Program-made: the position numbers and the translations under genes
Assembly: GCA_963752475.1 (NCBI GenBank)
Contig: CAVVYR010000030.1
Location: 1 to 11,037 of the forward strand
Length of the DNA stretch: 11,037 nt
Origin: an uncultured Chloroflexia bacterium
Lineage (GTDB): Bacteria; Chloroflexota; Limnocylindria; Limnocylindrales; CSP1-4
Direction: 5' to 3'
The notes under the pieces: generated by a model
Seen by the model: only the letters and a program-made list of their open reading frames with translations
What the model was told of the DNA's origin: nothing
The model's database searches: none
Shown: positions 1 through 11,037 of the stretch, piece by piece
How positions within the stretch are numbered: the stretch's first letter is position 1
Layout: each line of letters begins with the position of its first letter

Positions 1-113
1 TCGAGAGGGTCGAGCGCGGCATCTACGGTCTCTCGCCCAAGGGCCAGGTAGCGCTGGATACCTATGCCGATGTGCTCGTCAGCCTGGAGGCGGCGGGCGG
101 CGGTTCCGGGTAG
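1..113 (+). CDS. 3' end of a DUF2161-family (putative PD-(D/E)XK-type phosphodiesterase) gene, truncated by the window edge
   Basis: Frame from position 3 reads ERVERGIYGLSPKGQVALDTYADVLVSLEAAGGGSG*, with TAG at 111-113. (F)ERVERGIYxLxxxG resembles the C-terminal motif I recall for DUF2161 proteins. Only about 36 codons are visible. Confidence 0.6.
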   Translation, partial: ERVERGIYGLSPKGQVALDTYADVLVSLEAAGGGSG

Positions 114-631
114 ATGAGCTCGGGCGTGTCGCGCTCGGTGGGGGCCTGGACGAGCTCCACGAGGCAGCCGATGTCATCGCCGTGCTCGTAGTAGGCGAAG
201 CGACCGTCGCGCGTGCGACCGAATCCATCCCCGGTCTGCACGGCCACCCAGCCCTGCCGGCCATGTGCTCCGCGGCCGCTCGAAGTCGGGCACGTAGAAG
301 TTGAAGTGGTGGAGCGATGGCACCCCGGCTCCTCGAGGTACTCGTGCCAGATGCTGGGGCCCTCGAGCGGCTGGATGACCTCCATGGTCAGCGAGCCCGA
401 CATGGCCAGCCCGTAGCGGATCTTGAAGCTGGCGCGGTTCGCCGCGGTAGGTCACACGGTCAGGCCCCGCCCCGACCGTGTAGATCCTCCACGGTCCGAT
501 GCCCAGCAGCGACCAGTACGCGCGGATCGATGCCTCGACGTCCGGCACCACCAGCCGCGAGCTGGCCGACCGGGACTCCGAACCTGGAGCCACCCGGCAG
601 CGGCGCCTCAGAGCTCTCGAGTCGCTGACAT
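62..631 (-). CDS. VOC-family protein (glyoxalase / methylmalonyl-CoA epimerase-like), frameshifted
   Basis: Stitched from three minus frames: ...PVGQLA|LVVPDVEASIRAYWSLLGIGPWRIYT...YRGEP...MSGSLTMEVIQPLEGPSIWHEYLE...LHHFNFYVPDFE...GWVAVQTGDG...FAYYE...GCLVELVQ. The QxxxVVxD, LGIGPW, ExIQPxxGxS, LHH and final EL motifs are typical of this VOC subfamily. Probable ATG at 631 with AAGGAG (650-645) upstream; an ATG at 675 is an alternative. Confidence 0.8.
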
Positions 632-685
632 CGGCCCTTCGACACTCCTTCGTCGTTGACGCCGACGACAGACATCCATTCTACT

Positions 686-698
686 GTAACGTTGTTAC
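686..698. promoter_or_regulatory. Palindromic candidate operator, copy 1 (GTAAC-GTT-GTTAC), in the divergent VOC/SDR intergenic region
   Basis: TGTAACGTTGTTACC at 685-699. The same inverted repeat recurs at 3293 and 8097. Nearby are minus-strand TAGAAT (683-678) and plus-strand TTGACG (656-661). Confidence 0.75.
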
Positions 699-734
699 CA
701 GCAGACGTCGAACCACGACTAGCCGGGGGTCGTC

Positions 735-1534
735 ATGTTCCAGGAGTCTGTTCTCGCTCGACGGGCAAGGTCGCGCTGATCACGGGCGGTTCCGGGGCCA
801 TCGGCGCAGGGCGCGGCGCCGAGGTCTTCCTCGAGCTGGGAGCGAAGGTCATCCTCGCCGGCAGGACCGAGGAGCATCTGTCCGAGCGCCCGGTCGGCGC
901 TGCCGGCCGACGCCGAGGTGATCACCGTGCTCGGCGATGCGCGCGACTCCGCCCACGTGGACGAGCTGGTCGGACGTGGCGCGAGTCGAACGGCGGCGTG
1001 GACATCCTCGTCAACAGCGTGGGCACGAACCGGCGCAAGCCCATCCTCGAGGCGACCCCGGAGGACCTGGAGTTCCTGTGGCAGGTGAACATGGCCAGCG
1101 TCTGGGCCGTGACGCAGGCGCTCGTGCCCCAGATGGTCGAGAAGGGCTACGGCAAGATCATCAACATGTGCTCGATCGGATCGCTCGTCGGCCTCGAGTA
1201 CAAGACCATGTACGCCATCACCAAGGGTGCGCTGGCCCAGCACACGCGCAGCGCCGGGCTCGAGCTCGCGCAGTACGGCATCCGAGTCAACGCCCTCGCA
1301 CCGGGGTATGTCGACACGCCGATGACGCATGCGTGGATCCACTCGGAGCGCGAGGCCGAGTACCTGGCCAAGATCCCCCTGGGCAAGTACGCCGAGGTGT
1401 CGGACCTCCAGGGTGCCTTCGCCTTCCTGGCCTCACGAGCCTCCGACCACATCACCGGGCAGATCCTGGTGATCGACGGTGGCGAGACCGATCTGGTGAA
1501 CGAGCTGCCGCACGCGCAGCGACCGGAGAGATGA
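735..1534 (+). CDS. Classical SDR oxidoreductase (gluconate 5-dehydrogenase / KduD-like), frameshifted at the 5' end
   Basis: ATG at 735 after GGGGG. Reconstructed LFSLDGKVALITGGSGAIG, VDILVNSVG, GKIINMCS, catalytic YAITK, IRVNALAPGYVDTPMT and ITGQILVIDGG. The true end may be GGETIW* with TGA at 1497-1499 if there is one extra base near 1490; the ORF as given stops at 1534. Confidence 0.88.
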
Positions 1535-1535
1535 C

Positions 1536-2193
1536 ATGACACAGTAGCCGCGGAGATCCACCCTCGCCGCGATGCTCGCGGACCGGCGTCGTCGCCGTGG
1601 TCCGGGTCGATGACCCGACCGGCCTCATCGCCCTCGCGGACGCCCTGCGCAGCGGCGGGGTGATGCACACCGAGATCACCATGACCGTGCCCGGTGCCAT
1701 CGGCGCCATCGAGGCCACGGTGCGCGAGCTGGGCGATGAGGTCTTCATCGGGGCCGGGACCGTGCTCGACGCCACGACCGCCCGGCTGGCCATCAGCGCC
1801 GGCGCCTCGTTCATCGTCGCGCCCAACCTCGACCTCGAGGTCGTCGCCATGGCCCATCGCTACGGCGTGATGGTCATCCCCGGCTGCCTCACGCCCACCG
1901 AGATCGCCGCGGCCTGGTCGGCCGGAGCGGACATCGTGAAGCTGTTCCCGGGCCGGGTGGCCACGCCCGGCTACTTCGCCGACCTGCGCGGGCCGTTCCC
2001 GCAGGTGCAAGCTCATGCCCACGGGCAACGTCGACCTCGAGACGCGCCCGAGTACATCAAGGCCGGCGCGGTCGCGGTCGGCGTGGGCAAGGCCTTGGTC
2101 GACCCGGACGCGTTGCGTGAGGACGCGTGGGCGGACATCACCGAGAACGCTCGCAGCTTCCGGGCGATCGTCGACGAGGCTCGGGAGGCCTGA
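1536..2193 (+). CDS. eda: KDPG/KHG aldolase (2-dehydro-3-deoxy-phosphogluconate / 4-hydroxy-2-oxoglutarate aldolase), frameshifted
   Basis: GVVAVVR, EITMTVPGA, IGAGTVLD, FIVAPNLD, PGCLTPTEI, Schiff-base Lys in VKLFP, MPTGNV (in a shifted frame) and GAVAVGVG. GGAG at 1525-1528 precedes ATG 1536. TGA at 2191-2193. Confidence 0.9.
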
Positions 2194-2195
2194 CC

Positions 2196-3238
2196 ATGAA
2201 CCCCGCACCACATCGCGTCATCGCCTTCGGGGAGCTGCTGATGCGGCTCGAGCCGCGCGGCCACCAGCGCATCGTCCAGGCCGAGCGAGTTCGAGGTCGG
2301 CTACACCGGAGGGAGGCCAACGCGGCCGCACTCCTGGCCTGCGCTGGGCGTGGACTGCGGCCTGTGTCTCCAAGGTGCCCGCGACACGAGGTCGGCCAGG
2401 CGTGCGTCGACTACCTGCGGCGCTTCGGCATCGACACCACGCACATCGCCCGAGGCGGAGAGCGGCTCGGCCTGTTCTACCTCGAGACCGGCGCCTCGCA
2501 GCGCGCGTCGAAGGTCATCTACGACCGGGACCACACCTCACTGCGCGGCGCCGGGCCTGACGACTTCGATTGGGAGGCCATCCTCGAAGGTGCCGACTGG
2601 CTGCACTTCTCGGGCACCGCCCCCGCGTCGGGGCCGGCCATCGTGGACGTCCTCGAGCGGGGCTCGCGCTGGCCAAGGACCGAGGTGTCCGCGTCAGCTG
2701 CGACCTCAACTACCGGCGCAAGCTGTGGAGCCCGGCAGAGGCCGGCGAGGCGATGACCCGCCTGATGCCGTTCGTCGACGTGCTCATCGGCAACGAGGAG
2801 GACGCGACGACGGTCTTCGGCATCTCGGCCGAGGGCATCGACGTGGTCGGCGGCGAGCTCGATGTCGAGTCGTACCGCAAGGTCGCCGAACAGCTGATGG
2901 ACAGGTTCGGGCTCGAGGCGGTGGCGACGACCCTGCGCACCAGCATCTCGGCGTCGGTCAACTCGCTGGGCCGGACTCGCTCTACGACGGCACCGGCCAG
3001 TACCTCAGCCGCACCTACCAGATCGACCCCATCGTCGATCGCGTCGGCGGCGGCGATGCCTTCTCCGGAGGGCTCATCTACGGCATGCTGGAGGGCCTCG
3101 GACCCGCAGATCTGCGTGGAGTTCGCGGTGGCGGCATCGTGCCTGAAGCACTCCATCCCCGGTGACCTCGCCTACCTCTCCCGGGCCGAGATCGAGGCAC
3201 TCGTGGGCGGCGACGCCTCGGGACGGGTCCAGCGTTGA
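2196..3238 (+). CDS. kdgK: PfkB-family sugar kinase, 2-keto-3-deoxygluconate kinase type, frameshifted
   Basis: ATG 2196. FGELLMRL, (GG)[53 protein letters not shown], the PfkB signature [21 protein letters not shown] and C-terminal GDASGRVQR*. These are characteristic of the KDG-kinase subfamily. Confidence 0.9.
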
Positions 3239-3280
3239 GCGGGCCGGACGCCCCGCGGACTGGTGCGAGCCGACACCGAC

Positions 3281-3308
3281 TTGTCCCTCTGTGTAACGCT
3301 GTTACCGT
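3281..3308 (+). promoter_or_regulatory. Putative sigma70-type promoter overlapped by operator copy 2 (GTAAC-GCT-GTTAC, 3293-3305)
   Basis: TTGTCC (3281-3286), a 16-nt spacer, then TACCGT (3303-3308) with an extended TGn. The palindrome covers the spacer and -10. GGAGG (3334-3338) and ATG 3343 follow. Confidence 0.7.
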
Positions 3309-3342
3309 AGTCCTGGCAGGCTCGGGTCACGCGGGAGGTGAC

Positions 3343-4230
3343 ATGGCTACCCTACTGGGCCACACGCTCGGGACTCCTGGATCTGACGCCGATCGAGGCT
3401 CTGGACCTGTTCGCAGCGTCCGGGCTCGACGGTGGCGAGCTGATCTGGCTGGACGACTACCGCGGCGCCATCCCCGAGAGCGACGACGGCACGGTCGCCT
3501 CGCGCGGTCAAGGCGCACGCCGACCGGCTGGGCCTGAGCATCGGCTGCCTGACGCCCTACGTGACCGAACTCAACAGCCTCGACGATGACGCTCCGGCGG
3601 ACGCGAGATCGAGCGCCTCGAGCGGGCCATCCGTACGGCCCGGTCGCTTGACTGCTCCGCGCATCCGTGTCTACGGGGGAAGCTGCTCGGAGACGAGCCC
3701 GAAGCGGACGTCGCCGCGACTCCATGACCGACTCGTCGACTCGCTCGCGGCAGCTGGGACCGATGGCCGTGGACCACGGGGTCATCCTCTGCGTCGAGAA
3801 CCACTTCGGCACGGTGACGGTCTCGGCCGCCGACACCGTGGCGATCGTCGAGGAGGTGGACTCGCCGGGCGTGGGCATCCTCTACGACCAGGCCAACCTC
3901 ACGTTCACGCACCGCGAGGACTACCCCGAAGCCATCCGGCTCCAGGCCCCCTGGATCAGGCACGTGCACGTCAAGGACCTCGAGTTCATCCACCCCGACA
4001 GGTCCCTCAAGACCACCCAGGTCGCCAGCATCGACAAGTCGGAGCGGTCCACGCCTCGCGCATGATCGGCGACGGCATCCTCGACTGGAAGGCCATCGTC
4101 GAGGCCCTGCGCGCCATCGGCTACGACGGCACCTACTCGCTCGAGTACGAGTACCGCTGGAACCCCGAGGACCTGCCCGAGCCGGCCGTCGGCTTCCCCG
4201 AGAGCGCACGCCGGCTGCGGGCCTGTTTGA
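3343..4230 (+). CDS. Sugar phosphate isomerase/epimerase family protein (xylose isomerase-like TIM barrel), frameshifted; 3' end approximate
   Basis: GGAGG then ATG 3343, MATLLGHTLGTP|DLTPIEALDLFAASGLDGGEL. Later IRVYGG, metal-ligand motifs LCVENH, LYDQAN, HVHVKD and YSLEYE, plus GDGILDWKAIVEALRAIGYDG. Confidence 0.85.
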
Positions 4231-4277
4231 GGACACCGGCGGACCGCCGGGGCCTCCGAGGCGAGCTCACGGCCACG

Positions 4278-5155
4278 ATGAGCCGAGGTCGCGACACGCC
4301 GGACCAGCGCACAGGGCCGTCGAGGCGAGGCGCCGGGAAGGTCGGGACCACCACCATCGGCCGCACGATGCGGAAATGCTGGAGCTGCTGGCCGGCGAGC
4401 CTCGCGGCCTTCGCGTCACCGATCTGGCCAACACGCTCGGCGCTGAACCGGGCCATCCCGCATCGCATCCTCGCGGACTCATCGAGCTCGGCTACGTCGC
4501 CCAGGACCCACGCACCGAGCGCTACCGGGTGACCTTCAAGCTGGGCAGTCTGGGCCTCCGCCAGCTCGAGACCGCGGGCACGCCGCGCTGGGCACAGGAC
4601 GAGCTCGACAGGCTGGCGGCGAAGACCCGGGAGCTGGTCCGCCTGGCCGTCGTCTCGGAGGACACGCGCTGCGTTGGGTGGCCAAGGCACAGGGCTCGGC
4701 ATCCGCGCTGACGCTCGACGGCGTCTCGGGAGCCCAGGTGGTGCTGCACGCCACCGCGAGCGGCAAGGCCTGGCTGTCGACCCTGCCCGAGGATGAGGCC
4801 GCCGGCGCTCCTCGACCGAGCGCGGCCTGGATCGCCCAGACCTCACATACCGAGACCGACCTGGCCCGGTGATGCGCGACATCGCCGCGGCCCGCGAGCG
4901 CGGCTACGCCTGGTCGAAGAGGAGATGGAGGTCGGTGTGAGCGCCATCGCGGTGCCCGATCGTCCCTCCTGAGGCCGTCGATGGCCGAGCCGTCGCGACG
5001 GTCAGCATCGCCGGGCCTGCCGCCCGCCTGGGCCACGACCGACTCGTCGAGCTACGCGCCGGCCCTGGCCGCGGTGGCCCGACGAACTCGGGGCCCAGTG
5101 GCACGCCTACGAGTACATGACCGCACTGTCCGGAACCAGTCGCCCCGAGCAGTGA
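4278..5155 (+). CDS. IclR-family transcriptional regulator, frameshifted
   Basis: Reconstructed HTH TIGRTM-MLELLAGEPRGLRVTDLANTL-LNRAIPHRIL--LIELGYVAQDPRTERYRVTFKL. Effector domain has ELVRLAV, LHATASGKAWLS, RERGYA--EEEMEVGVSAIAVPI and VATVSIAGPAARL. TGA at 5153-5155. Confidence 0.88.
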
Positions 5156-5160
5156 CCTCC

Positions 5161-5950
5161 ATGATCGAATGGGAGGAGCGCGACGGGCGGCATCGGCGTC
5201 ATCACGCTGGCGCGCCCACCGGTCAATGCGTTCGACGCGAGCATCGAAGCGGGAGCTCGTACGGCCTGCTGGGCGAGCTCGAGTGCGCGCACGGACATCC
5301 GGAGCATCGTCATCCGCAGCGGCCTGCCGCGTACCTTCTGTGCTGGCTCGGACCTGCAGGAGCTGGCGCGCGAGCATGATCGGCGCGGCGTGGCCCTGGA
5401 ACGGACGAGGTTCGAGTTCGACATGTGGCAGCGGCTCTCGAGCCTGCCGCAGCCGTCCATCGCGGCGATCGACGGCCATGCCCTTGGGAGCGGCCTCGAG
5501 CTAGCCGTGGCCTGCGACTTCCGCATCGCAGGAGCTGGCGCGACCCTCGGTCTGCCCGAGATCCGCATCGGCGGCGCACCGGGCATCCAGGTGCTGGCCC
5601 GCCTCCCGCGTGCTCGTCGGGCTCGGCATCGGCCACGCGGATGCTTCTGACTGGGTGACACCTTCACCGCAGATGAGAGCCGCGTCGGCGGGCCTGGTCC
5701 ACGAGGTCGCCCCGGACGGGAGCTGCGTTCGAGGTCGCCGAACGGTCTGGCGCAGCGGCTCGCGCGACAGCCGCGCAGCTCCGATCCGGTTCCTTAAGGC
5801 CTCCCTGTCCGCGGCGCTCGACGCGTCCGTCGAACGCGTCGCCGCGGTGGCCGAGGATGGGCGTCGAGGGACTGTTCCAGGCGCGCCGAGATGCGCGAGG
5901 GAATCGCGGCCTTCCTCGAGAAGCGCCAGCCGTCGACTTCACATCGATGA
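5161..5950 (+). CDS. Enoyl-CoA hydratase/isomerase (crotonase) family protein, frameshifted
   Basis: MIEWEERDG|IGVITLARPPVNAFD, FCAGSDLQEL, PSIAAIDGHALGSGLELAVACDFRIA, LGLPEIRIG, MLLTG, GLVHEV and AFLEKRQP. Both crotonase catalytic Glu positions (GLE, PE) are present. Confidence 0.88.
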
Positions 5951-5993
5951 GAGCCCTGAGCCCGCTCGACGGGGCGCTCAACGGTGTCGTGCA

Positions 5994-7558
5994 GTGACGC
6001 TCCAAGGTCGTGGATATCACCGAAGCCGTCGCGCGCGATCGACGACGGCCAGACGGTCGCCGTCGGCGGCAGCGGCCACCTGCTCCAGGTGCCCGACGGC
6101 GTCCTCGCGGCCTGGCGCGCTCGCTACGACGAGACGGGCTCACCGGTCGGGCTGACCGTCGTCCACACCATGGGCATCGGCGACAACGCCATCCGGGGCA
6201 TGGGGCGGCTGGCGCGGCCCGGTCTGGTGCGCCGCTTCATCGGCTCGCACTACGGCCACAACCCAGAGATCATGCGCATGATCGCCGACGACGAGGTCGA
6301 GGCGCTGGGCATCCCCGGCGGGACGCTCTCCCTCCTCTACCGGGAGATCGCCGGCCACCGACCCGGGCTCGTCACCAAGGTCGGGCTGGGGACCTTCGTG
6401 GACCCTCGAGTCGAGGGCGGGCGGCTGAACGCTGCGCACCAGCGGCTCGATCGCCGAGGTGATCGAGCTGGCCGGTCGAGGAGTGGCTGTTCTACCAGGC
6501 TTCCCCATCGATGTCGGGCTCATCCGTGCGACCACCGCCGACACCGACGGCAACCTGACCATGGAGGACGAGGCCGGCTTCGCCGACAACCTGGCGCTGG
6601 CCTCGGCCGTGCACAACTCCGGCGGGCTCGTCATCGCCGAGGTCAAGCGGCTGGCCGAGGCGGGTCGCTGCCACCCAAGTCGGTGCAGGTCCCGGGCATC
6701 CTGGTCGACGCCATCGTCGTCGACCCCGACCAGCACCAGACCGGGGCCACCGTCTACAGCCCCTACCTCGCAGGCTCACTGCGGGCGCCCGGCGCGACGA
6801 TGCCGCGACTTGACCCGGGCCCACGCAAGCTCATCGCACGGCGAGCGGCTGACGAGTTGCGCCGGGCGACGTCGTCAACCTCGGCTACGGCGTCTCCAGT
6901 GGCGTGGCCTCGGTCCTCGCCGAGGAGGGCCACTACGACGACGTCTCGTTCAGCATCGAGCAGGGCATCGTCGGTGGCGTGCCCGGGCGTCGGGCCTCGA
7001 CTCCGGGACGGCGGTGAACGCCCAGGCCTACATCGACGAAGGGTCACAGTTCGACCTCTACGACGGAGGCGCGCTCGATGTCGCCTGCGTCGCCTTCGGC
7101 GAGGTCGACGCCGTCGGCAACGTCAACGTCAGCAAGCTGGCGGGTCGGGCGGTCGGCCCAGGCGGCTTCATCAACATCACCCAGAACGCCAAGCGGGTCA
7201 TCTTCTGCGGCACGTTGACCGGTGGCGGGCTGGAGGTCGACGTCGCACGCCGACCGGATCGAGATCCGTCAGCGAGGGCCGCTACGCCAAGTTCGTCGAG
7301 CGCGTCGAGCACATCACCTTCGCCGCAGCCCAGGGCGCGGCGGCCCGAGCGCGAGGTCCTCTACGTCACCGAGCGGGCCGTGTTCCGCCTGGCCGATGGC
7401 GGCCTCGAGCTGATCGAGGTCGCGCCCGGGATGGACCTGCGAGCGCGACGTCGTGGAGCGCATGGGCTTCCGACCGTCGCTGGCGGCATCGCTCGAGCAC
7501 GATGGACCTGCGACTGCTGCGCGACGGGCCCATGGGCAGCGTCAGGCATGCTGAGTGA
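5994..7558 (+). CDS. Family I CoA-transferase, single-chain alpha/beta fusion (acyl-CoA:acetate/3-ketoacid CoA-transferase, YdiF/Pct-like), frameshifted
   Basis: IDDGQTVAVGGSG, RPGLVTKVGLGTFVDPRVEGGRLN, IRATTADTDGNLTMEDE, VQVPGILVDAIV, IARRAA, VVNLGYG, catalytic-Glu motif SIEQGIVGG, GNVNVSK, GPGGFINITQNAKRVIFCGT and LYVTERAVFRL. Probable GTG start near 5994; TGA ends at 7558. Confidence 0.9.
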
Positions 7559-7600
7559 CCCGGAGCCATGAAGCCACCGCGTCAACGAAGGAAGGCCGCG

Positions 7601-8100
7601 ATGGACCGAGGCGTCCTGCGCTACGAGGACCTGCACGTCGGGCTCGAGTTCGAGAGTCCCACGCGCACCATCACCGAGAGCGACGTGATGATGTTCGCGG
7701 GACTCACCGGCGACTACTCGGAGCTGCACACCAGCGAGGCCTTCGCCAAGCAGACGCAGTACGGCCGACGTGTCGCCCACGGACTCCTCGGGCTGTCCAT
7801 CGCCCACGGACTGATGTGGCCGCGGACCAACGCACTGCGCGACATCGCGGTGGCCCTGCTGGGCATCTCCGACTGGCGCTTCCGGGGCCCCATCTTCCTG
7901 GGCGACACCGTCCACGTGCGCTACCGGGTCGCCGAGATGCGCGACAGTCGCTCCAGGCCCGGCCAGGCCATCATGACCTTCGAGGTCGAGTTCCTCGACG
8001 AGACCGGCACGGTCTCCAGGAGGGCCGCAAGGCACTGCTGGTCTCCAAGACCCCGCTGGCCGCGGCCCGGCGCCGCCCGGCGACCGGTGGGCGTACGTAA
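7601..8100 (+). CDS. MaoC-like (hotdog-fold, R-specific) dehydratase, one frameshift near 8014
   Basis: ATG 7601 after GAAGG. YEDLHVGLEFESPTRTITESDVMMFAGLTGDYSELH (catalytic Asp and His), GRRVAHG, WRFRGPIFLGDTV and SRSRPGQAIMTFEV. It continues QEGRKALLV in another frame to TAA 8098-8100. Confidence 0.9.
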
Positions 8101-8112
8101 CAGTGTTACACT
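8097..8112 (+). promoter_or_regulatory. Operator copy 3 (GTAAC-AGT-GTTAC, 8097-8109) overlapping an extended -10 element upstream of the ABC genes
   Basis: CGTAACAGTGTTACACT, containing TGn-TACACT at 8104-8112. AGGAG (8135-8139) and ATG 8150 follow. No convincing -35. Confidence 0.7.
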
Positions 8113-8149
8113 CGGCCGACCCGATGCTGCAGCTAGGAGCTACAGGCCG

Positions 8150-8999
8150 ATGGTGACGGAGGGCACGCGGGAGGACGCTCAGGCCGCGCGTGCGCGCACG
8201 ACCGAGGAGTACGAGCGTGAACGGCGGAGGCGGAAGATCCGCCGCGTGTGGCACACCACCTTGCCCGTGCTCACGTTCACCCTGTTGCTCGTGGGTTGGT
8301 GGGCCTTCGTCGAAGACTGCCGATGTGCCCGAGTACGTCATCCCCTCGCCGCTCGATGTCTTCCCGCGACTCATCACCGACTTCGACCGCATCGTCGAGG
8401 AATTGGGGACGACCATCCAGGAGATCCTGCTGGGGTTCGCCCTGGCTATCCTCCTGGCCATCCCGCTGGGCCTGCTCCTGGCCCTGAACGAGACGGCCAA
8501 GCGCGCGCTGTATCCGGCGGTCGTCTTCGTCCAGCTCATCCCCAAGATCGCCGTTGCGCCCCTCTTCCTGGTGTGGTTCGGGTTCGGCATCGAGTCGAAG
8601 GTCCTGCTGGTCTTCCTGCTGACCTATTTCCCGTTGCTGCTGGCCAGCATGGCGGGCTTCTCCATCCTCGACGACCGGGTGCTCTACCTGACCAAGTCGA
8701 TGGGCGCGTCGACCTGGCAGACATTCCGCTACCTGCGCCTGCCCAGTGCCCTGCCGATCATCTTCTCCGGCCTGAAGACCTCGGCCACCATCGCCGCCAC
8801 GGCCGCCATCGTGGCCGAGTTCGTGGGTGCCAACAAGGGACTCGGCTACCTGCTGCTGGAAGCCACCTCGACGCTCGATACCGAACTCATCTTCGCCATC
8901 ATCCTGGTGCTCACCCTCATCGGCATCGGGCTCAACTACATCGTCGAATTCGTCGAATACATCACCACGCCCTGGACACGTTCGGCCAACGAACAGTGA
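8150..8999 (+). CDS. ABC transporter permease, NitT/TauT (SsuC/TauC-like), one frameshift near 8312
   Basis: ATG 8150 with AGGAG. LLLVGWWAFV|KTADVPEYVIPSPLDV, QLIPKIAVAPLFLVWFGFG, EAA-like loop SMGASTWQTFRYLRLPSALPIIFSGLK, and AIVAEFVGANKGLGYL. Several hydrophobic segments. Confidence 0.92.
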
Positions 9000-9091
9000 G
9001 TGGTAGACACGACCAGGAAGTCCGGAAGACCCGAAGGCTCGTCCAGGGAGAGCGTCGGAGGGGATTTCCCGGTAGCAACAAGGAGGAGAGC

Positions 9092-10141
9092 ATGCGGACC
9101 AAGAGGACGCTAGCTCTAGGAGCAGGTCTCGTCATGGCCTTGACGGCCACGGCTTCGGTGGCCGGTGGAGTCGCCGCCCAGGATGACGAGAAGCTCGACC
9201 AGGTCACGTTCCAGCTCAACTGGGTGCCTGGTGGGTTCCACGCCGGATTCGCGGTCGCCCGCGAAAAGGGCTACTACGAGGACGAGGGGCTCTTCGTGCA
9301 CCTGGTGCCGGGCAACGGCTCGGGCACGACCGCCCAACTGGCGGCTGCGGGCAACGTCGACGTCGCCTATGCCGACGCGGTGCCGGTGACGCAGCTCATC
9401 GCCAAGGATGCCCCGCTGAAGGTCATCTCGACCCTGTTCCAGGGTTCGCCCATCCAGATCACCGCCATCGCCGGTACCGGCATCGAGGAGATCGGGGACC
9501 TCGCGGGCAAGTCGCTCGCGTATCCCTCCGGTGGATCGCAGGCCCCGCAGCTGCCGCTGCTCTTCGCGGCCAATGACATCGATCCCGACAGCGTGGACCT
9601 GGTGGCCTCGCCGCGACAGTCCCTCGTGCCGCAGCTGCTCGAGGGCCAGGTCGACGCCATCGTGGGCTCGATGGACTTCTTCGGCATCCAGCTTGCGGAT
9701 CGCGGGGTCGAGACCGTCGACTTCCCCATGTACGACTACGGGGTGGCCACGGTCAGCACCTCGATCTTCGCCAACGAGCCGTGGCTCGAGGAGAACGCCG
9801 ACATCGCCAGCGCATTCGTGCGCGCCAGCCTGCGTGGCTGGGAGGATGCCTTGGCCGAATCCCGACGCGGCCATCGAGGCCCTGACGGCGATCTTCCCCA
9901 ACGCCGATGCGGAAGAGGCCAAGAAGCAGCTTGAGGCCACGGTGCCGCTGTACTGTGCCAACGGGGCCGAGTACATCGGCAAGGCCACCGAGGAGGCCTG
10001 GGCGAACCACCAGTCGGTGCTCGAGCAGGTCGAAAGCCTGCCCGTGGGCATCGACCCCACGACGTACTACACGTACGACTTCCTGCCCCCTGACAGCGAG
10101 CTCACTCCCTGCGAGCAGAGCCTGCGACGAGCGCGGGATGA
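9092..10141 (+). CDS. ABC transporter substrate-binding protein, NMT1/THI5-like; frameshift near 9857, stop uncertain
   Basis: Strong AAGGAGGAG RBS and ATG 9092. Signal peptide MRTKRTLALGAGLVMALTATASVAGGVAA|QDD. VTFQLNWVPGGFHAGFAVAREKGYYEDEGL, GNGSG, LLEGQVDAI and FVRASLRGW---NPDAA follow. The last frame runs without a stop into the ATPase; the nearest off-frame TGA is 10139-10141. Confidence 0.88.
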
Positions 10142-10163
10142 CGAAGGACAGGGGCCGGGAACG

Positions 10164-11015
10164 ATGGATCGCGCGGGCACGAAGAGCGGTGGCGTACGCG
10201 TCGAGATCGACGGCGTGTCGCGCACCTTCAACGAGTTCAGCGATGACCCGTTCCTGGCCCTGTCCGAGACGCACCTGACGCTCGAGCCAGGCGAATTCGT
10301 CAGTGTGGTAGGCCCGAGCGGGTGCGGCAAGTCCACGCTCATGCTCATCTCGGCGGGCCTGCTCGCACCCACCACCGGTCAGGTCCGTGTCGACGGCGAG
10401 GTGCTGACCAAGCCCATGACCGATGTCGGCATCGCCTTCCAGGACCACCTCCTACTCGATTTCCGAACGGCCAAGGAGAACGTCCTGCTCCAGGCGGACA
10501 TCCGCAAGCTCGACCGTGAGGCCCTGGGCAGGCGCACCGATGAGCTGTTCGAGCAGCTCGGCCTCGACGACGCCGCGGGCAAGTACCCGCGCCAGCTCTC
10601 CGGAGGCATGCGCCAACGCGTCTCACTGGCCCGCACGGTCGTGCATCGCCCGTCCATGCTCATGCTCGACGAGCCCTTCGGCGCCCTCGACGCGCTGACC
10701 CGCCTGCAGGTCCGCCACGACCTGGAGCAGCTCTGGCTGCGTGATCGACCGACCGTGCTGTTCGTCACCCACTCGGTCGAAGAGGCCGTAGGCCTGTCCG
10801 ACCGAATCGTCGTGTTCTCGGTCTCCCCGGGCCAGGTCGTGGACGAGATCACCGTCGATCTGCCCCGGCCACGCCCGCTCGCGCTTGGCGACACCCCCGA
10901 GTACGCGTCCTACGCGGACCGGGTCTTCGAGCACTTCGAGTCCATGGGCGTGTTGAGCCAAGGCGGAGGGTTCAGGCGCGCCGAACCGATGACAGAGGGC
11001 CGGAGCGCGCGCTAG
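10164..11015 (+). CDS. ABC transporter ATP-binding protein, NitT/TauT (SsuB/TauB-like)
   Basis: Walker A GPSGCGKST, Q-loop AFQD, signature LSGGMRQR, Walker B MLDEPFGALD, H-loop FVTHSVEEAV and VDLPRPR. Intact frame from ATG 10164 to TAG 11013-11015. Confidence 0.95.
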   Translation: MDRAGTKSGGVRVEIDGVSRTFNEFSDDPFLALSETHLTLEPGEFVSVVGPSGCGKSTLMLISAGLLAPTTGQVRVDGEVLTKPMTDVGIAFQDHLLLDFRTAKENVLLQADIRKLDREALGRRTDELFEQLGLDDAAGKYPRQLSGGMRQRVSLARTVVHRPSMLMLDEPFGALDALTRLQVRHDLEQLWLRDRPTVLFVTHSVEEAVGLSDRIVVFSVSPGQVVDEITVDLPRPRPLALGDTPEYASYADRVFEHFESMGVLSQGGGFRRAEPMTEGRSAR

Positions 11016-11037
11016 CAAGAAGGGCAGTCCCCGGGTG

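Follow-up and report, generated by a model that had tools for sequence, protein, structure and literature searches.

The DNA analyzed here is an 11,037-base stretch (hereafter the window) from an uncultured Chloroflexia bacterium. It is the entire contig C30 of G000, a metagenome-assembled genome (MAG) of 4.25 Mb in 38 contigs with 88.8% completeness and 5.83% contamination. The window, whose GC content is 69%, carries a cluster of twelve genes in which an aldolase and a kinase of the 2-keto-3-deoxygluconate (KDG) type are combined with a xylose-isomerase-like TIM barrel, an IclR-family regulator, enzymes of coenzyme A (CoA) thioester chemistry and an ATP-binding cassette (ABC) importer, and a palindromic operator shared by its three transcription units marks the cluster as one regulon. 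As the window is a full contig without flanks of its own, its surroundings are known from relatives only. In the following, C numbers denote contigs of G000 (chiefly C1, C8, C27 and C30), G001, G014 and G024 are congeners, and L numbers denote loci. An intact, collinear cluster in G001 (loci L011/L012) served as the reference. Pfam was run on the 90 stop-to-stop open reading frames (ORFs) of at least 75 aa in the window, and Pfam together with NCBIfam on the G001 orthologues. The PfkB kinase and the VOC protein had no Pfam match in the broken frames of the window and were placed by tblastn and by frameshift-aware alignment to G001. All genes of the cluster lie on the plus strand except that for VOC, and several are split over two frames. 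The features are as follows, where identities refer to the named copy and frame events are those passed in following the reference protein through the window.

101 to 633, minus strand: VOC protein (Glyoxalase_4-type), divergent from SDR1; 138 of 175 residues identical to G001; 4 frame events
686 to 698: operator 1, GTAACGTTGTTAC, in the divergent VOC/SDR1 intergenic region of about 100 bp
735 to 1496, plus strand: short-chain dehydrogenase SDR1 (adh_short_C2, E 1.3e-43, in the ORF at 629-1531); 257 of 317 residues identical to G001; 7 frame events
1573 to 2190, plus strand: Eda-type KDPG/KHG aldolase (PF01081, E 3.2e-37, in the ORF at 1540-2190); 3 frame events
2178 to 3235, plus strand: KDG-type PfkB kinase (KdgK); 290 of 349 residues identical to G001; 9 frame events
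3293 to 3305: operator 2, GTAACGCTGTTAC, about 40 nt upstream of the start codon of the TIM barrel gene
3343 to 4306, plus strand: AP_endonuc_2 (xylose-isomerase-like) TIM barrel (Pfam matches in two frames, E 4.3e-16 and 7.4e-10); 250 of 325 residues identical to G001; 11 frame events
4335 to 5141, plus strand: IclR-family regulator (HTH_IclR and IclR_C in two frames, E 8e-5 and 3e-5); 12 frame events
5140 to 5949, plus strand: crotonase-family enoyl-CoA hydratase, ECH (ECH_1, E 3.7e-29); 16 frame events
6020 to 7555, plus strand: CoAT1, a fused family-I CoA-transferase of the YdiF/propionate-CoA-transferase type (CoA_trans, E 1e-11); 456 of 526 residues identical to G001 once the frame is followed; 13 frame events
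7500 to 7560: mosaic junction, with a change of nearest relative and of indel density
7586 to 8100, plus strand: MaoC-type (R)-specific enoyl-CoA hydratase/dehydratase (PF01575, E 1.1e-20); 1 frame event
8097 to 8109: operator 3, GTAACAGTGTTAC, about 40 nt upstream of the permease start, with the MaoC stop codon inside it
8150 to 8996, plus strand: ABC permease, SaoP/TauC-like (BPD_transp_1, E 1.8e-30); 238 of 299 residues identical to the C8 copy
9035 to 10112, plus strand: NMT1/THI5-type (SsuA/ThiY-like) substrate-binding protein, SBP (NMT1, E 2e-45); 286 of 399 residues identical to the C8 copy; 1 frame event at 9854
10146 to 11015, plus strand: ABC ATPase, SaoA/TauB-like (ABC_tran, E 2.4e-29); 238 of 275 residues identical to the C8 copy; 0 frame events

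As the twelve genes tile bases 101-11015, no room is left for a further gene. Pfam found no match among the 90 ORFs to the IlvD/Edd, UxuA, altronate/galactarate dehydratase, enolase-superfamily or KduI families, and likewise none to thiolase, acyl-CoA dehydrogenase or AMP-ligase families. An earlier note made from the letters of the window had claimed both this gene set in one cluster and the lack of these dehydratases, of KduI, of thiolase and acyl-CoA dehydrogenase and of a CoA ligase. Pfam, tblastn and the frameshift-aware alignment bear out the former, and the 90 ORFs agree with the latter. Scans of the window for tRNA genes and Rfam families gave 0 matches each, and a scan for promoter and terminator consensus gave 0 and 0, an outcome that is uninformative for this phylum. 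At the left edge, window bases 1-114 contain the 3′ end of an open frame that enters from upstream and stops at 112-114. For bases 1-100, matches of 76-85% lie at unrelated sites in several congeners and at 37973-38044 of C8; this segment belongs to neither a tRNA nor an Rfam family.

Regarding the regulation of the cluster, the palindrome GTAAC-N3-GTTAC occurs exactly at three sites of the window, against 0.01 expected, and none of 200 shuffles reached three. It was found by reading the intergenic DNA, and a generic repeat search, which returned 637 inverted pairs, did not surface it. The sites lie about 40-55 nt from likely start codons, and the genes fall into three transcription units, namely the divergent VOC and SDR1-Eda-KdgK, then TIM-IclR-(ECH)-CoAT1-...-MaoC, and finally permease-SBP-ATPase. 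The genome holds eight exact copies of the motif, all within three copies of the cluster on C1, C8 and C30. Sites stand at equivalent promoters in G001, G014, G024, L018, L019 (three sites), L020 (two) and L022 (two), and they persist in relatives down to 63% CoAT1 identity. The G001 site that matches operator 3 likewise precedes the permease, there after a DegT gene. Because the operator occurs in the genome only within copies of the cluster and is maintained in relatives, the genes form one regulon and are not merely adjacent, as had been proposed from the palindrome shared by the three blocks. IclR is the only regulator in the regulon and is presumed to be the binder of the palindrome (TGTAAC-N3-GTTACA-like operators). 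With eight of eight genome-wide sites in cluster copies, the operator marks regulon members cleanly in any new genome.

Predicted proteins and copies of the cluster

The first transcription unit encodes the KDG-type proteins. SDR1 of G001 scored 212 bits with the NCBIfam model PRK07231 (cutoff 215), 197 with gluconate 5-dehydrogenase and 184 with KduD, all below the cutoffs, and SDR1 is a short-chain dehydrogenase that lies nearest the glucose-1-dehydrogenase, gluconate-5-dehydrogenase and KduD groups. The G001 aldolase reached 178.1 bits with TIGR01182 (eda), above the cutoff of 156.05. The G001 kinase matched PfkB (E 3.8e-34). KDG-type models top its ranking, yet all score below their cutoffs, with 476 bits for the kinase half of NF041633 (the cutoff of 700 applies to the whole fusion) and 231 bits for the haloarchaeal KDG/KDGal kinase (cutoff 440). 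The divergent VOC protein of G001 matched PF13669 (E 9e-13) and no NCBIfam model at E <= 1e-5. Its only PDB sequence match at E <= 0.01 is 3gm5 (lactoylglutathione-lyase-like, 62 bits), so that no methylmalonyl-CoA epimerase is among its PDB matches at this threshold, and it bears no likeness to known acyl-CoA epimerases.

The TIM barrel (PF01261, E 1.4e-43 in G001) belongs to a rare subfamily, which is represented by 69 of 1.84 billion library representatives at E <= 1e-30 and, at E <= 1e-40, by one of 401 genomes sampled across the phylum, namely G000. Its Glu-Asp-His-Glu metal ligands are conserved: in the 69 sequences, Glu148 and Asp178 are invariant, and His150, His205, Glu264 and Glu266 are at least 90% conserved. 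The AF2 model has a pLDDT of 95.3. A Foldseek comparison with the PDB gave no specific neighbor: all neighbors share at most 22% identity at a query-normalized TM-score of about 0.7, and they include SCO6571, the isomerase Art22, 2-hydroxy-3-keto-glucal hydratase, UlaE, psicose/tagatose epimerases, YcjR, AsbF and IolE. The models of IolE, psicose epimerase and IolO are matched weakly, the G001 orthologue scoring 48.9 bits with the IolE model TIGR04379, short of its cutoff of 290, and the ESM Atlas returned only generic "sugar phosphate isomerase/epimerase" clusters. The conserved residues and the modeled fold together predict a metal-dependent enzyme of keto-sugar enolate chemistry. In the C8 copy (G000:C8:77552-79273; L097:15505-17274), TIM and IclR stand in one open frame of 590 aa with no stop between them, and in G001 a single stop codon separates the two in the same frame. 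The C8 frame is either an enzyme-regulator fusion or a base error. The G001 regulator itself contains both domains, HTH_IclR (E 6.8e-12) and IclR_C (E 8.6e-29), and scored 141 bits with the PcaR/PcaU subfamily model, 125 with BhcR and 121 with KdgR, all below the cutoffs.

Among the CoA-type proteins, residues 20-529 of G001 CoAT1 align to residues 15-525 of E. coli YdiF (2ahu, 422 bits). A Glu of CoAT1 (E323 of A1) is aligned with YdiF residue 333 and is invariant in the 20-sequence alignment; Glu333 of YdiF is presumably the glutamate that forms the enzyme-CoA thioester. By sequence and by this catalytic residue, CoAT1 can be assigned to the YdiF/propionate-CoA-transferase group. MaoC hydratases use a catalytic Asp...His pair, which is retained (GDxxxxH), reading G-D-Y-S-E-L-H in the G001 orthologue aligned to MaoC structures. 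Crotonase hydratases have two catalytic glutamates in ELA and PE motifs, and both motifs are retained in the G001 crotonase aligned to 5zai and 2pbp; its best PDB match is the 3-hydroxypropionyl-CoA dehydratase 5zai. ECH is missing from the C8/G014 cluster type and from L022. As the orthologues of CoAT1, MaoC, ECH and the TIM barrel keep their catalytic residues, these enzymes look active. Regarding the importer, the SBP of the window has 44% identity to that of G001, whose best PDB sequence matches are ThiY 3ix1 (76 bits) and 4nmy (69 bits). The scores with SsuA_fam (82 bits, cutoff 163.5), SaoP (125, cutoff 295) and SaoA (206, cutoff 360) are all below the cutoffs, and the importer would have the architecture of an NMT1 ABC system of the sulfonate/taurine/hydroxymethylpyrimidine type.

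The reading frames of the window are broken at many points. Following the reference proteins took 79 frame events, 72 of them in SDR1-MaoC, and two or three enter the count twice owing to the overlap of the IclR and crotonase reference frames. For this purpose, a protein-to-DNA aligner with frameshift states replaced plain DNA pairwise alignment, which gave compensating artefacts, and it was controlled on intact copies: the C1 and C8 copies showed 0 events in KdgK, TIM and ECH and 2 in CoAT1. Once the frame was followed, the window contained 0 in-frame stops, and the left-hand genes were 77-87% identical to G001. Codon position 3 takes 61% of the substitutions relative to G001, equal to the intact C1 copy, and nonsynonymous/synonymous codon changes number 462/653 in the window vs 376/541 in C1. 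One extra base, mostly outside homopolymers, accounts for 52 of the 72 events. The lack of in-frame stops and the substitution pattern of a selected gene thus indicate that the frame breaks are probably consensus errors and not decay, and the roughly 70 single-base breaks in bases 1-7500 look like assembly errors, in line with the earlier note, which had treated them as correctable. No public sequencing runs were listed that hold bases 500-8200.

At the mosaic junction, the character of the contig changes. To its left there are about 10 events per kb, and the nearest DNA is that of G001/G024, mostly at 81-90% and at 71-83% in 4 of 15 windows; to its right there is about 1 event per kb, and the nearest DNA is that of C8/G014 at 72-89%. 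The contig may therefore be a chimera of two cluster types joined near base 7500, at the CoAT1/MaoC boundary. It is unlikely that the copy in the window is not a working unit, either as a decayed pseudogene cluster or as a chimera of two cluster types from co-binned strains. Such a view would account for about 70 frame events in bases 500-7550 vs only 3 in 7560-11037, and for the switch of nearest relative from the G001/G024 to the C8/G014 type at the same point as the event density. It also fits a bin with 5.83% contamination and two further full cluster copies, several small contigs of which share the low long-ORF coverage of C30. Decay, however, disagrees with the lack of in-frame stops, with the codon-position and nonsynonymous/synonymous pattern of an intact paralogue and with the 52 single extra bases, which are typical of read errors. 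As for a chimera, the regulon is intact in G001, C1, C8, L018, L019, L020 and L022, and ECH-CoAT1 followed by the ABC system is also present in L104, L106 and L107. A chimera would alter only the gene order of the window (ECH together with a direct MaoC-permease junction) and not the existence of the regulon. In the same bin, long high-GC3 open-frame coverage is 0.36-0.58 on contigs C5, C17, C22, C25, C27, C34, C35 and C37, vs about 0.8 on the large contigs. These low-coverage contigs are small except C5 and C27 (about 70 kb each), which suggests that contigs of poor polish or foreign origin are scattered over the bin.

All three copies of the cluster in G000 keep CoAT1 and MaoC alongside KdgK/Eda. 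The long copy on C1 adds a second SDR, a family-III CoA-transferase, a DegT-type aminotransferase and an EamA exporter, and the short copy on C8 is without the crotonase. Directly downstream of the long copy lie IS110-family and rve-type transposase genes (L100:9166-11721). Long matches to the cluster were found in 4 of the 25 genomes of the genus searched, G000 included, and the adjoining transposases hint that the cluster moves as an island, which fits this patchy presence. The C8 copy is flanked by two paralogous thiamine diphosphate-dependent enzymes (L097:10656-12338 and L098:3865-5559), which scored 843.8 and 835 bits with the indolepyruvate/phenylpyruvate decarboxylase model (cutoff 554.5). 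On C27 (L101; G000:C27:52000-67553) there is yet another Eda/KdgK pair of the cluster subfamily, the fourth, at 74-75% identity and with no palindrome. Its neighbors are a family-III CoA-transferase, a zinc-dependent alcohol dehydrogenase (Zn-ADH), an SDR, a URO-D-like protein, a P450-like fragment, a sugar-type ABC system and LacI, so that KdgK of this type is paired with a CoA-transferase in a second, distinct manner. On C6, a generic KdgK/Eda pair (47% and 44% identity) adjoins an enolase-superfamily (MR_MLE) dehydratase. Since this textbook dehydratase-kinase-aldolase set exists on C6, yet each operator-marked cluster keeps its own pair, that pair probably acts on something beyond, or besides, ordinary KDG. 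No canonical aldonate dehydratase or KduI was found in the loci and flanks of G001, C1, C8, L019, L020 and L022, the check for a dehydratase just outside the cluster that the earlier note had called for.

Synteny of the KDG-type and CoA-type genes

The linkage between the two gene sets was followed from both sides. From the side of CoAT1, species-representative genomes were scanned with a 20-sequence alignment, which yielded 80 loci with up to 10 kb on each side, and 16 proteins of G001 were compared with these loci by tblastn (at least 50% query coverage, E <= 1e-8). Eda and KdgK are near CoAT1 in 8 of the 80 loci. Where CoAT1 is at least 63% identical, six of seven loci contain Eda and KdgK, and all six also contain TIM and IclR in the same order; they belong to three congeners, two more distant Chloroflexota and one MAG labeled Actinomycetota. 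The seventh close locus, L021 (CoAT1 64%), was considered as a counter-example and set aside, as its gene is N-terminally short (residues 37-512) and lies amid unrelated genes. From the side of the TIM barrel, metagenomes were scanned with an 11-sequence alignment, again giving 80 loci. In 11 of the 12 loci with TIM at least 58% identical, KdgK is directly upstream, and the twelfth has only 1 upstream base. CoAT1 follows downstream of TIM in six of the seven such loci that have at least 3 kb of downstream sequence. The two-way linkage, the shared operator and the presence of both gene sets in all three copies point to a single physiological task shared by the KDG-type and the CoA-type genes. 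The claim of kdgK/eda-CoA synteny thus holds among close orthologues, six of seven in either direction, and fails among more distant relatives.

The other members of the CoAT1 set illustrate this separation. In L023 and L024, loci of Bacillota and Peptococcaceae MAGs, Eda and KdgK meet CoAT1 again, with CoAT1 at 48-49% and KdgK at 53%. These two loci share an IlvD/Edd dehydratase, a tripartite ATP-independent periplasmic (TRAP) transporter, an acryloyl-CoA-reductase-like dehydrogenase (461 bits, cutoff 640), a Zn-ADH, MaoC, SDRs and IclR; L023 adds an altronate-type dehydratase and a LarA-like protein, and L024 an electron transfer flavoprotein (ETF) and ECH. Neither has the TIM barrel or the palindrome. 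Such gene sets resemble a fermentation of sugar acids coupled to a reductive branch of the acrylate type. The other 71 loci, most of them from Proteobacteria and Bryobacterales with CoAT1 at 41-50%, contain no Eda/KdgK, and in many of them CoAT1 is accompanied by an SDR, MaoC, a family-III transferase or ECH. In the proteobacterial loci L051, L038 and L066, the CoA module is accompanied by GFO/IDH/MocA oxidoreductases, AP_endonuc_2 barrels, PanE-type reductases and EamA, with shikimate-dehydrogenase-like genes in L051 and L066 and a type II dehydroquinase in L038. This set may represent a CoA-dependent route for hydroaromatic or cyclitol acids.

The TIM set shows the same from the opposite side. 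L113 (TIM 59%) reads GntR-SDR-TIM2 ... SDR1-Eda-KdgK-TIM-IclR and has no CoA genes, with unrelated genes for 10 kb downstream. In the 68 loci with TIM at 43-55%, CoAT1, MaoC and a KdgK of the cluster type were each found in 0, and an Eda-like aldolase was present in 24 and a full NMT1 ABC system in 14. Where such a locus extends over at least 8 kb, an Eda-like aldolase or the NMT1 ABC system is present in 26 of 32. Pfam was run on 8 of the 80 TIM loci, seven with TIM at 43-55% and L113. L122 and L123 read LacI-TIM-(TIM)-aldolase of the dihydrodipicolinate synthase (DHDPS) family-NMT1 ABC-NAD-epimerase-GFO/IDH/MocA-luciferase-like oxidoreductase, and L136 has the same set with Eda replacing DHDPS. 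The SsuA-like SBP and the luciferase-like enzyme suggest a sulfonated or otherwise unusual sugar acid as the substrate of these three loci. L156, L158 and L143 share LacI-TIM-GFO/IDH/MocA, to which L158 adds an AroE-like gene, an AAA_33 kinase, Eda and a major facilitator superfamily (MFS) transporter, and L159 reads TRAP-ZnADH-DHDPS aldolase-GFO-TIM-GFO-TIM-PfkB. The constant companions of the TIM barrel over distance are an oxidoreductase and a pyruvate-dependent aldolase, with or without a kinase, and often the same importer; they are not CoA enzymes. The TIM barrel, which the earlier note had treated as a side player, is the gene that in distant relatives stays with the pyruvate aldolase and the same NMT1 importer. 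Since the two modules separate outside the clade, the KDG-like acid probably comes from SDR1 and TIM, with the CoA enzymes added as a branch.

Possible functions of the regulon

The best explanation, which is tentative and rated at somewhat less than even odds, is a three-operon catabolic regulon under one IclR-family repressor/activator, in which SDR1 and TIM feed KdgK/Eda and the CoA genes form a co-regulated add-on branch. The regulon would serve an imported polyhydroxy acid or sugar derivative. The NMT1-type ABC system would import the substrate, and SDR1 and TIM would act on a keto intermediate by isomerization, epimerization or β-elimination, leading to a KDG-like 2-keto-3-deoxy acid. 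This acid would be phosphorylated by the cluster's own KdgK and cleaved by its own Eda to pyruvate and triose phosphate. CoAT1 and MaoC, joined in some copies by the crotonase, a second SDR or a family-III CoA-transferase, would constitute a separable branch, in which CoAT1 may activate a second carboxylic acid (a co-product or a related substrate) by CoA transfer and 3-hydroxyacyl-CoA and enoyl-CoA may be interconverted.

Several points weigh against this explanation. Every step of the route is drawn from gene context, and the binding of IclR to the palindrome is an assumption. The linkage of the KDG and CoA genes, six of seven each way, would also fit a single linear pathway, as would the renewed meeting of the two sets in L023/L024 and, with a family-III transferase, on C27. 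No chemistry was apparent that leads from a common sugar acid to KDG by an SDR and a keto-sugar isomerase/dehydratase alone, except for a substrate that is already a 4-deoxy-5-keto-uronate, and no lyase or hydrolase that would make such a compound is present near the cluster. Neither structure nor sequence gives the TIM barrel a specific match, so that "feeder of a KDG-like acid" describes a role and not a reaction.

The first of the alternative pathways, which had been put forward in the earlier note and is rather unlikely, is the dehydration of an aldonyl-CoA. CoAT1 would activate an aldonate, and MaoC, or the crotonase for the other C3 configuration, would remove water across C2-C3. The resulting enol would give a 2-keto-3-deoxyacyl-CoA, from which CoAT1 would pass the CoA to the next aldonate, freeing KDG for KdgK/Eda. 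SDR1 and TIM would act earlier, in sugar oxidation and epimerization, and the crotonase and perhaps VOC would widen the range of stereoisomers. Such a route would take the place of the known sugar-acid dehydratases, cycling its cofactor and doing without iron and sulfur. It gains from the lack of a canonical aldonate dehydratase in the window and in the flanks of G001, C1, C8, L019, L020 and L022, from the tight linkage of CoAT1 with KdgK/Eda/TIM among orthologues, and from the three G000 copies, which all retain both CoAT1 and MaoC. Further points in its favor are the KdgK of the cluster subfamily (53%) beside a CoAT1 homologue in Firmicutes and the fourth pair beside a family-III transferase on C27. 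Chemistry of this kind is usual for thioester hydratases, and the catalytic residues are retained. YdiF-type enzymes, however, are known for short-chain acids. The relatives of the TIM barrel keep the aldolase and the same importer with CoA genes in 0 of 68 loci, L113 holds the KDG/TIM/IclR set without CoA genes, and the CoA module is independent elsewhere, including Proteobacteria. The IlvD/Edd and altronate dehydratases beside the Firmicute KdgK/Eda imply that CoA chemistry is not needed there for KDG. From the TIM loci, L113, the Proteobacteria and the Firmicutes together, it follows that the aldonyl-CoA mechanism is unneeded in relatives; it survives for the clade itself. A CoA-bound sugar acid has been proposed from fitness data for Klebsiella michiganensis (PMC6365646). 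As a precedent, this proposal stands for the thioester and not for the dehydration, since the steps described in the available part of that source are oxidation and thiolysis (PMC6365646).

The second alternative, which appears improbable, places the CoA branch downstream of or beside the aldolase, where it would act on a small acid of the pathway (a 3-oxo/3-hydroxy C3-C4 acid or reduced pyruvate) in a manner resembling the inositol metabolism of Anaerostipes. There, a 3-oxoacid CoA-transferase is described, in the accessible part of the source, as the key enzyme from inositol to 3-oxopropionyl-CoA and propionate (PMC8355322). L023 and L024 join Eda and KdgK to CoAT1, the acryloyl-CoA-reductase-like dehydrogenase, ETF, ECH, MaoC and an SDR, the best PDB match of the crotonase is a 3-hydroxypropionyl-CoA dehydratase, and a PanE-type 2-oxoacid reductase adjoins CoAT1 in L019 and L022. 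On the other hand, Eda acting on a phosphorylated KDG-like acid gives pyruvate and triose phosphate, which leaves no obvious acid for the CoA-transferase. Moreover, acyl-CoA dehydrogenase, ETF and thiolase are missing from the window and from the Chloroflexota relatives, apart from one acyl-CoA dehydrogenase upstream in L022.

The third alternative, which is very improbable, assumes as substrate a hydroxylated carboxylate of alicyclic or hydroaromatic type (quinate/shikimate-like or a carboxy-cyclitol). This compound would be processed as a CoA thioester, TIM would serve as an IolE/AsbF-like dehydratase, and a ring-opened product would enter KdgK/Eda. The proteobacterial CoAT1 loci, with their shikimate-dehydrogenase-like genes (L051, L066), type II dehydroquinase (L038), GFO/IDH/MocA proteins and TIM barrels, point in this direction, as do the shikimate-dehydrogenase-like gene beside Eda in the TIM locus L158, the best NCBIfam model of IclR (PcaR/PcaU, 141 bits), and AsbF and IolE among the sequence and fold neighbors of TIM. 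In E. coli, ydiB, aroD and ydiF are neighbors, and Streptomyces has a route from shikimate to cyclohexanecarboxyl-CoA. Nevertheless, the window, G001, C1 and C8 contain no AroE-, AroQ- or GFO-type gene, no ring-opening route was apparent that ends in a substrate for a C6-kinase and Eda, all model scores are far below the cutoffs, and the literature searches found nothing relevant on such a pathway.

Other candidates were rejected. Sulfoquinovose or another C6-sulfonate, considered in view of the SsuA-like SBP and the luciferase-like monooxygenases in distant TIM loci, would leave the C6 kinase without a hydroxyl to phosphorylate. A sugar-acyl conjugate split into halves, the other idea of the earlier note, finds no esterase, amidase or glycosidase conserved in any copy, and an itaconate/mesaconate-type C5-dicarboxylate route finds no CoA-ester lyase.

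Taken as a whole, the cluster represents a variant, not described before, of the sugar-acid-type catabolic clusters controlled by IclR regulators; its TIM barrel is rare, its importer is unusual, and a CoA module is attached to it. In agreement with the suggestion that the combination is not a named pathway, no description of it was found in a literature search that left most subscription journals outside. Working out the regulon would provide a substrate and a reaction for a rare, uncharacterized branch of xylose-isomerase-like TIM barrels, a ligand class for NMT1-type importers outside sulfonates and thiamine precursors, and a physiological role for CoA-transferases of the YdiF type, about whose natural substrates little is known. 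The host comes from a Chloroflexota lineage of soil and water type that is uncultured and whose carbon sources rest largely on inference. If the CoA genes did supply the KDG-like acid, which is less likely on present evidence, a new way to dehydrate sugar acids would be added.

Comparison with known systems

The KdgR-type KDG/hexuronate modules are like the cluster in their IclR regulator (KdgR, 121 bits), KduD-like SDR (184 bits), KDG-type PfkB kinase and Eda, and in the palindromic operator before each unit. The scores of the SDR, kinase and regulator of the cluster are all below the model cutoffs. In contrast to these modules, the cluster is without KduI, UxuA, UxaA or another dehydratase and has a rare AP_endonuc_2 TIM barrel in the place of the isomerase/dehydratase, its CoA-thioester enzymes are in the operon of the regulator, and its importer is of the NMT1/SsuA/ThiY type. 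With the keto-sugar TIM enzymes (IolE, AsbF, UlaE, YcjR, 2-hydroxy-3-keto-glucal hydratase and Art22), the TIM barrel shares the fold and the set of metal ligands, and its distant relatives adjoin GFO/IDH/MocA or SDR oxidoreductases, like the keto-sugar enzymes themselves; it differs in having at most 22% identity to any solved member.

The inositol-to-propionate pathway of Anaerostipes reportedly consists of a kinase/aldolase sugar part and a branch with an SDR and a crotonase, and it is said to be anoxic and to use inositol (Iol) enzymes and an acryloyl-CoA reductase with ETF. Unlike it, the window encodes an aldolase of the Eda type and lacks both acyl-CoA dehydrogenase and ETF; the gene sets of L023/L024 resemble it. 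The likeness to the cluster, as far as the accessible text of the source goes, is a sugar-type pathway coupled to a CoA-transferase branch, in which a 3-oxoacid CoA-transferase is key to forming 3-oxopropionyl-CoA and propionate from inositol (PMC8355322). In the deoxyribonate proposal for Klebsiella michiganensis, deoxyribonyl-CoA is formed by a CoA-synthetase and passes through a β-hydroxyacyl-CoA dehydrogenase and a thiolase, and a glycerate kinase is also part of the route (PMC6365646). The sugar acid as CoA thioester and a CoA-transferase in the cluster are the shared features, whereas the scheme, in the part of the source available, has no hydratase, KDG kinase or Eda and the regulon described here has no synthetase or thiolase (PMC6365646). 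Finally, CoAT1 resembles YdiF, propionate CoA-transferase and Staphylococcus FadX as a single-chain α-β fusion of about 520 aa that keeps the Glu of YdiF position 333, its score with the FadX model being 365 bits, below the cutoff of 750. It differs from YdiF and FadX in its setting, as CoAT1 sits with KdgK/Eda and the TIM barrel.

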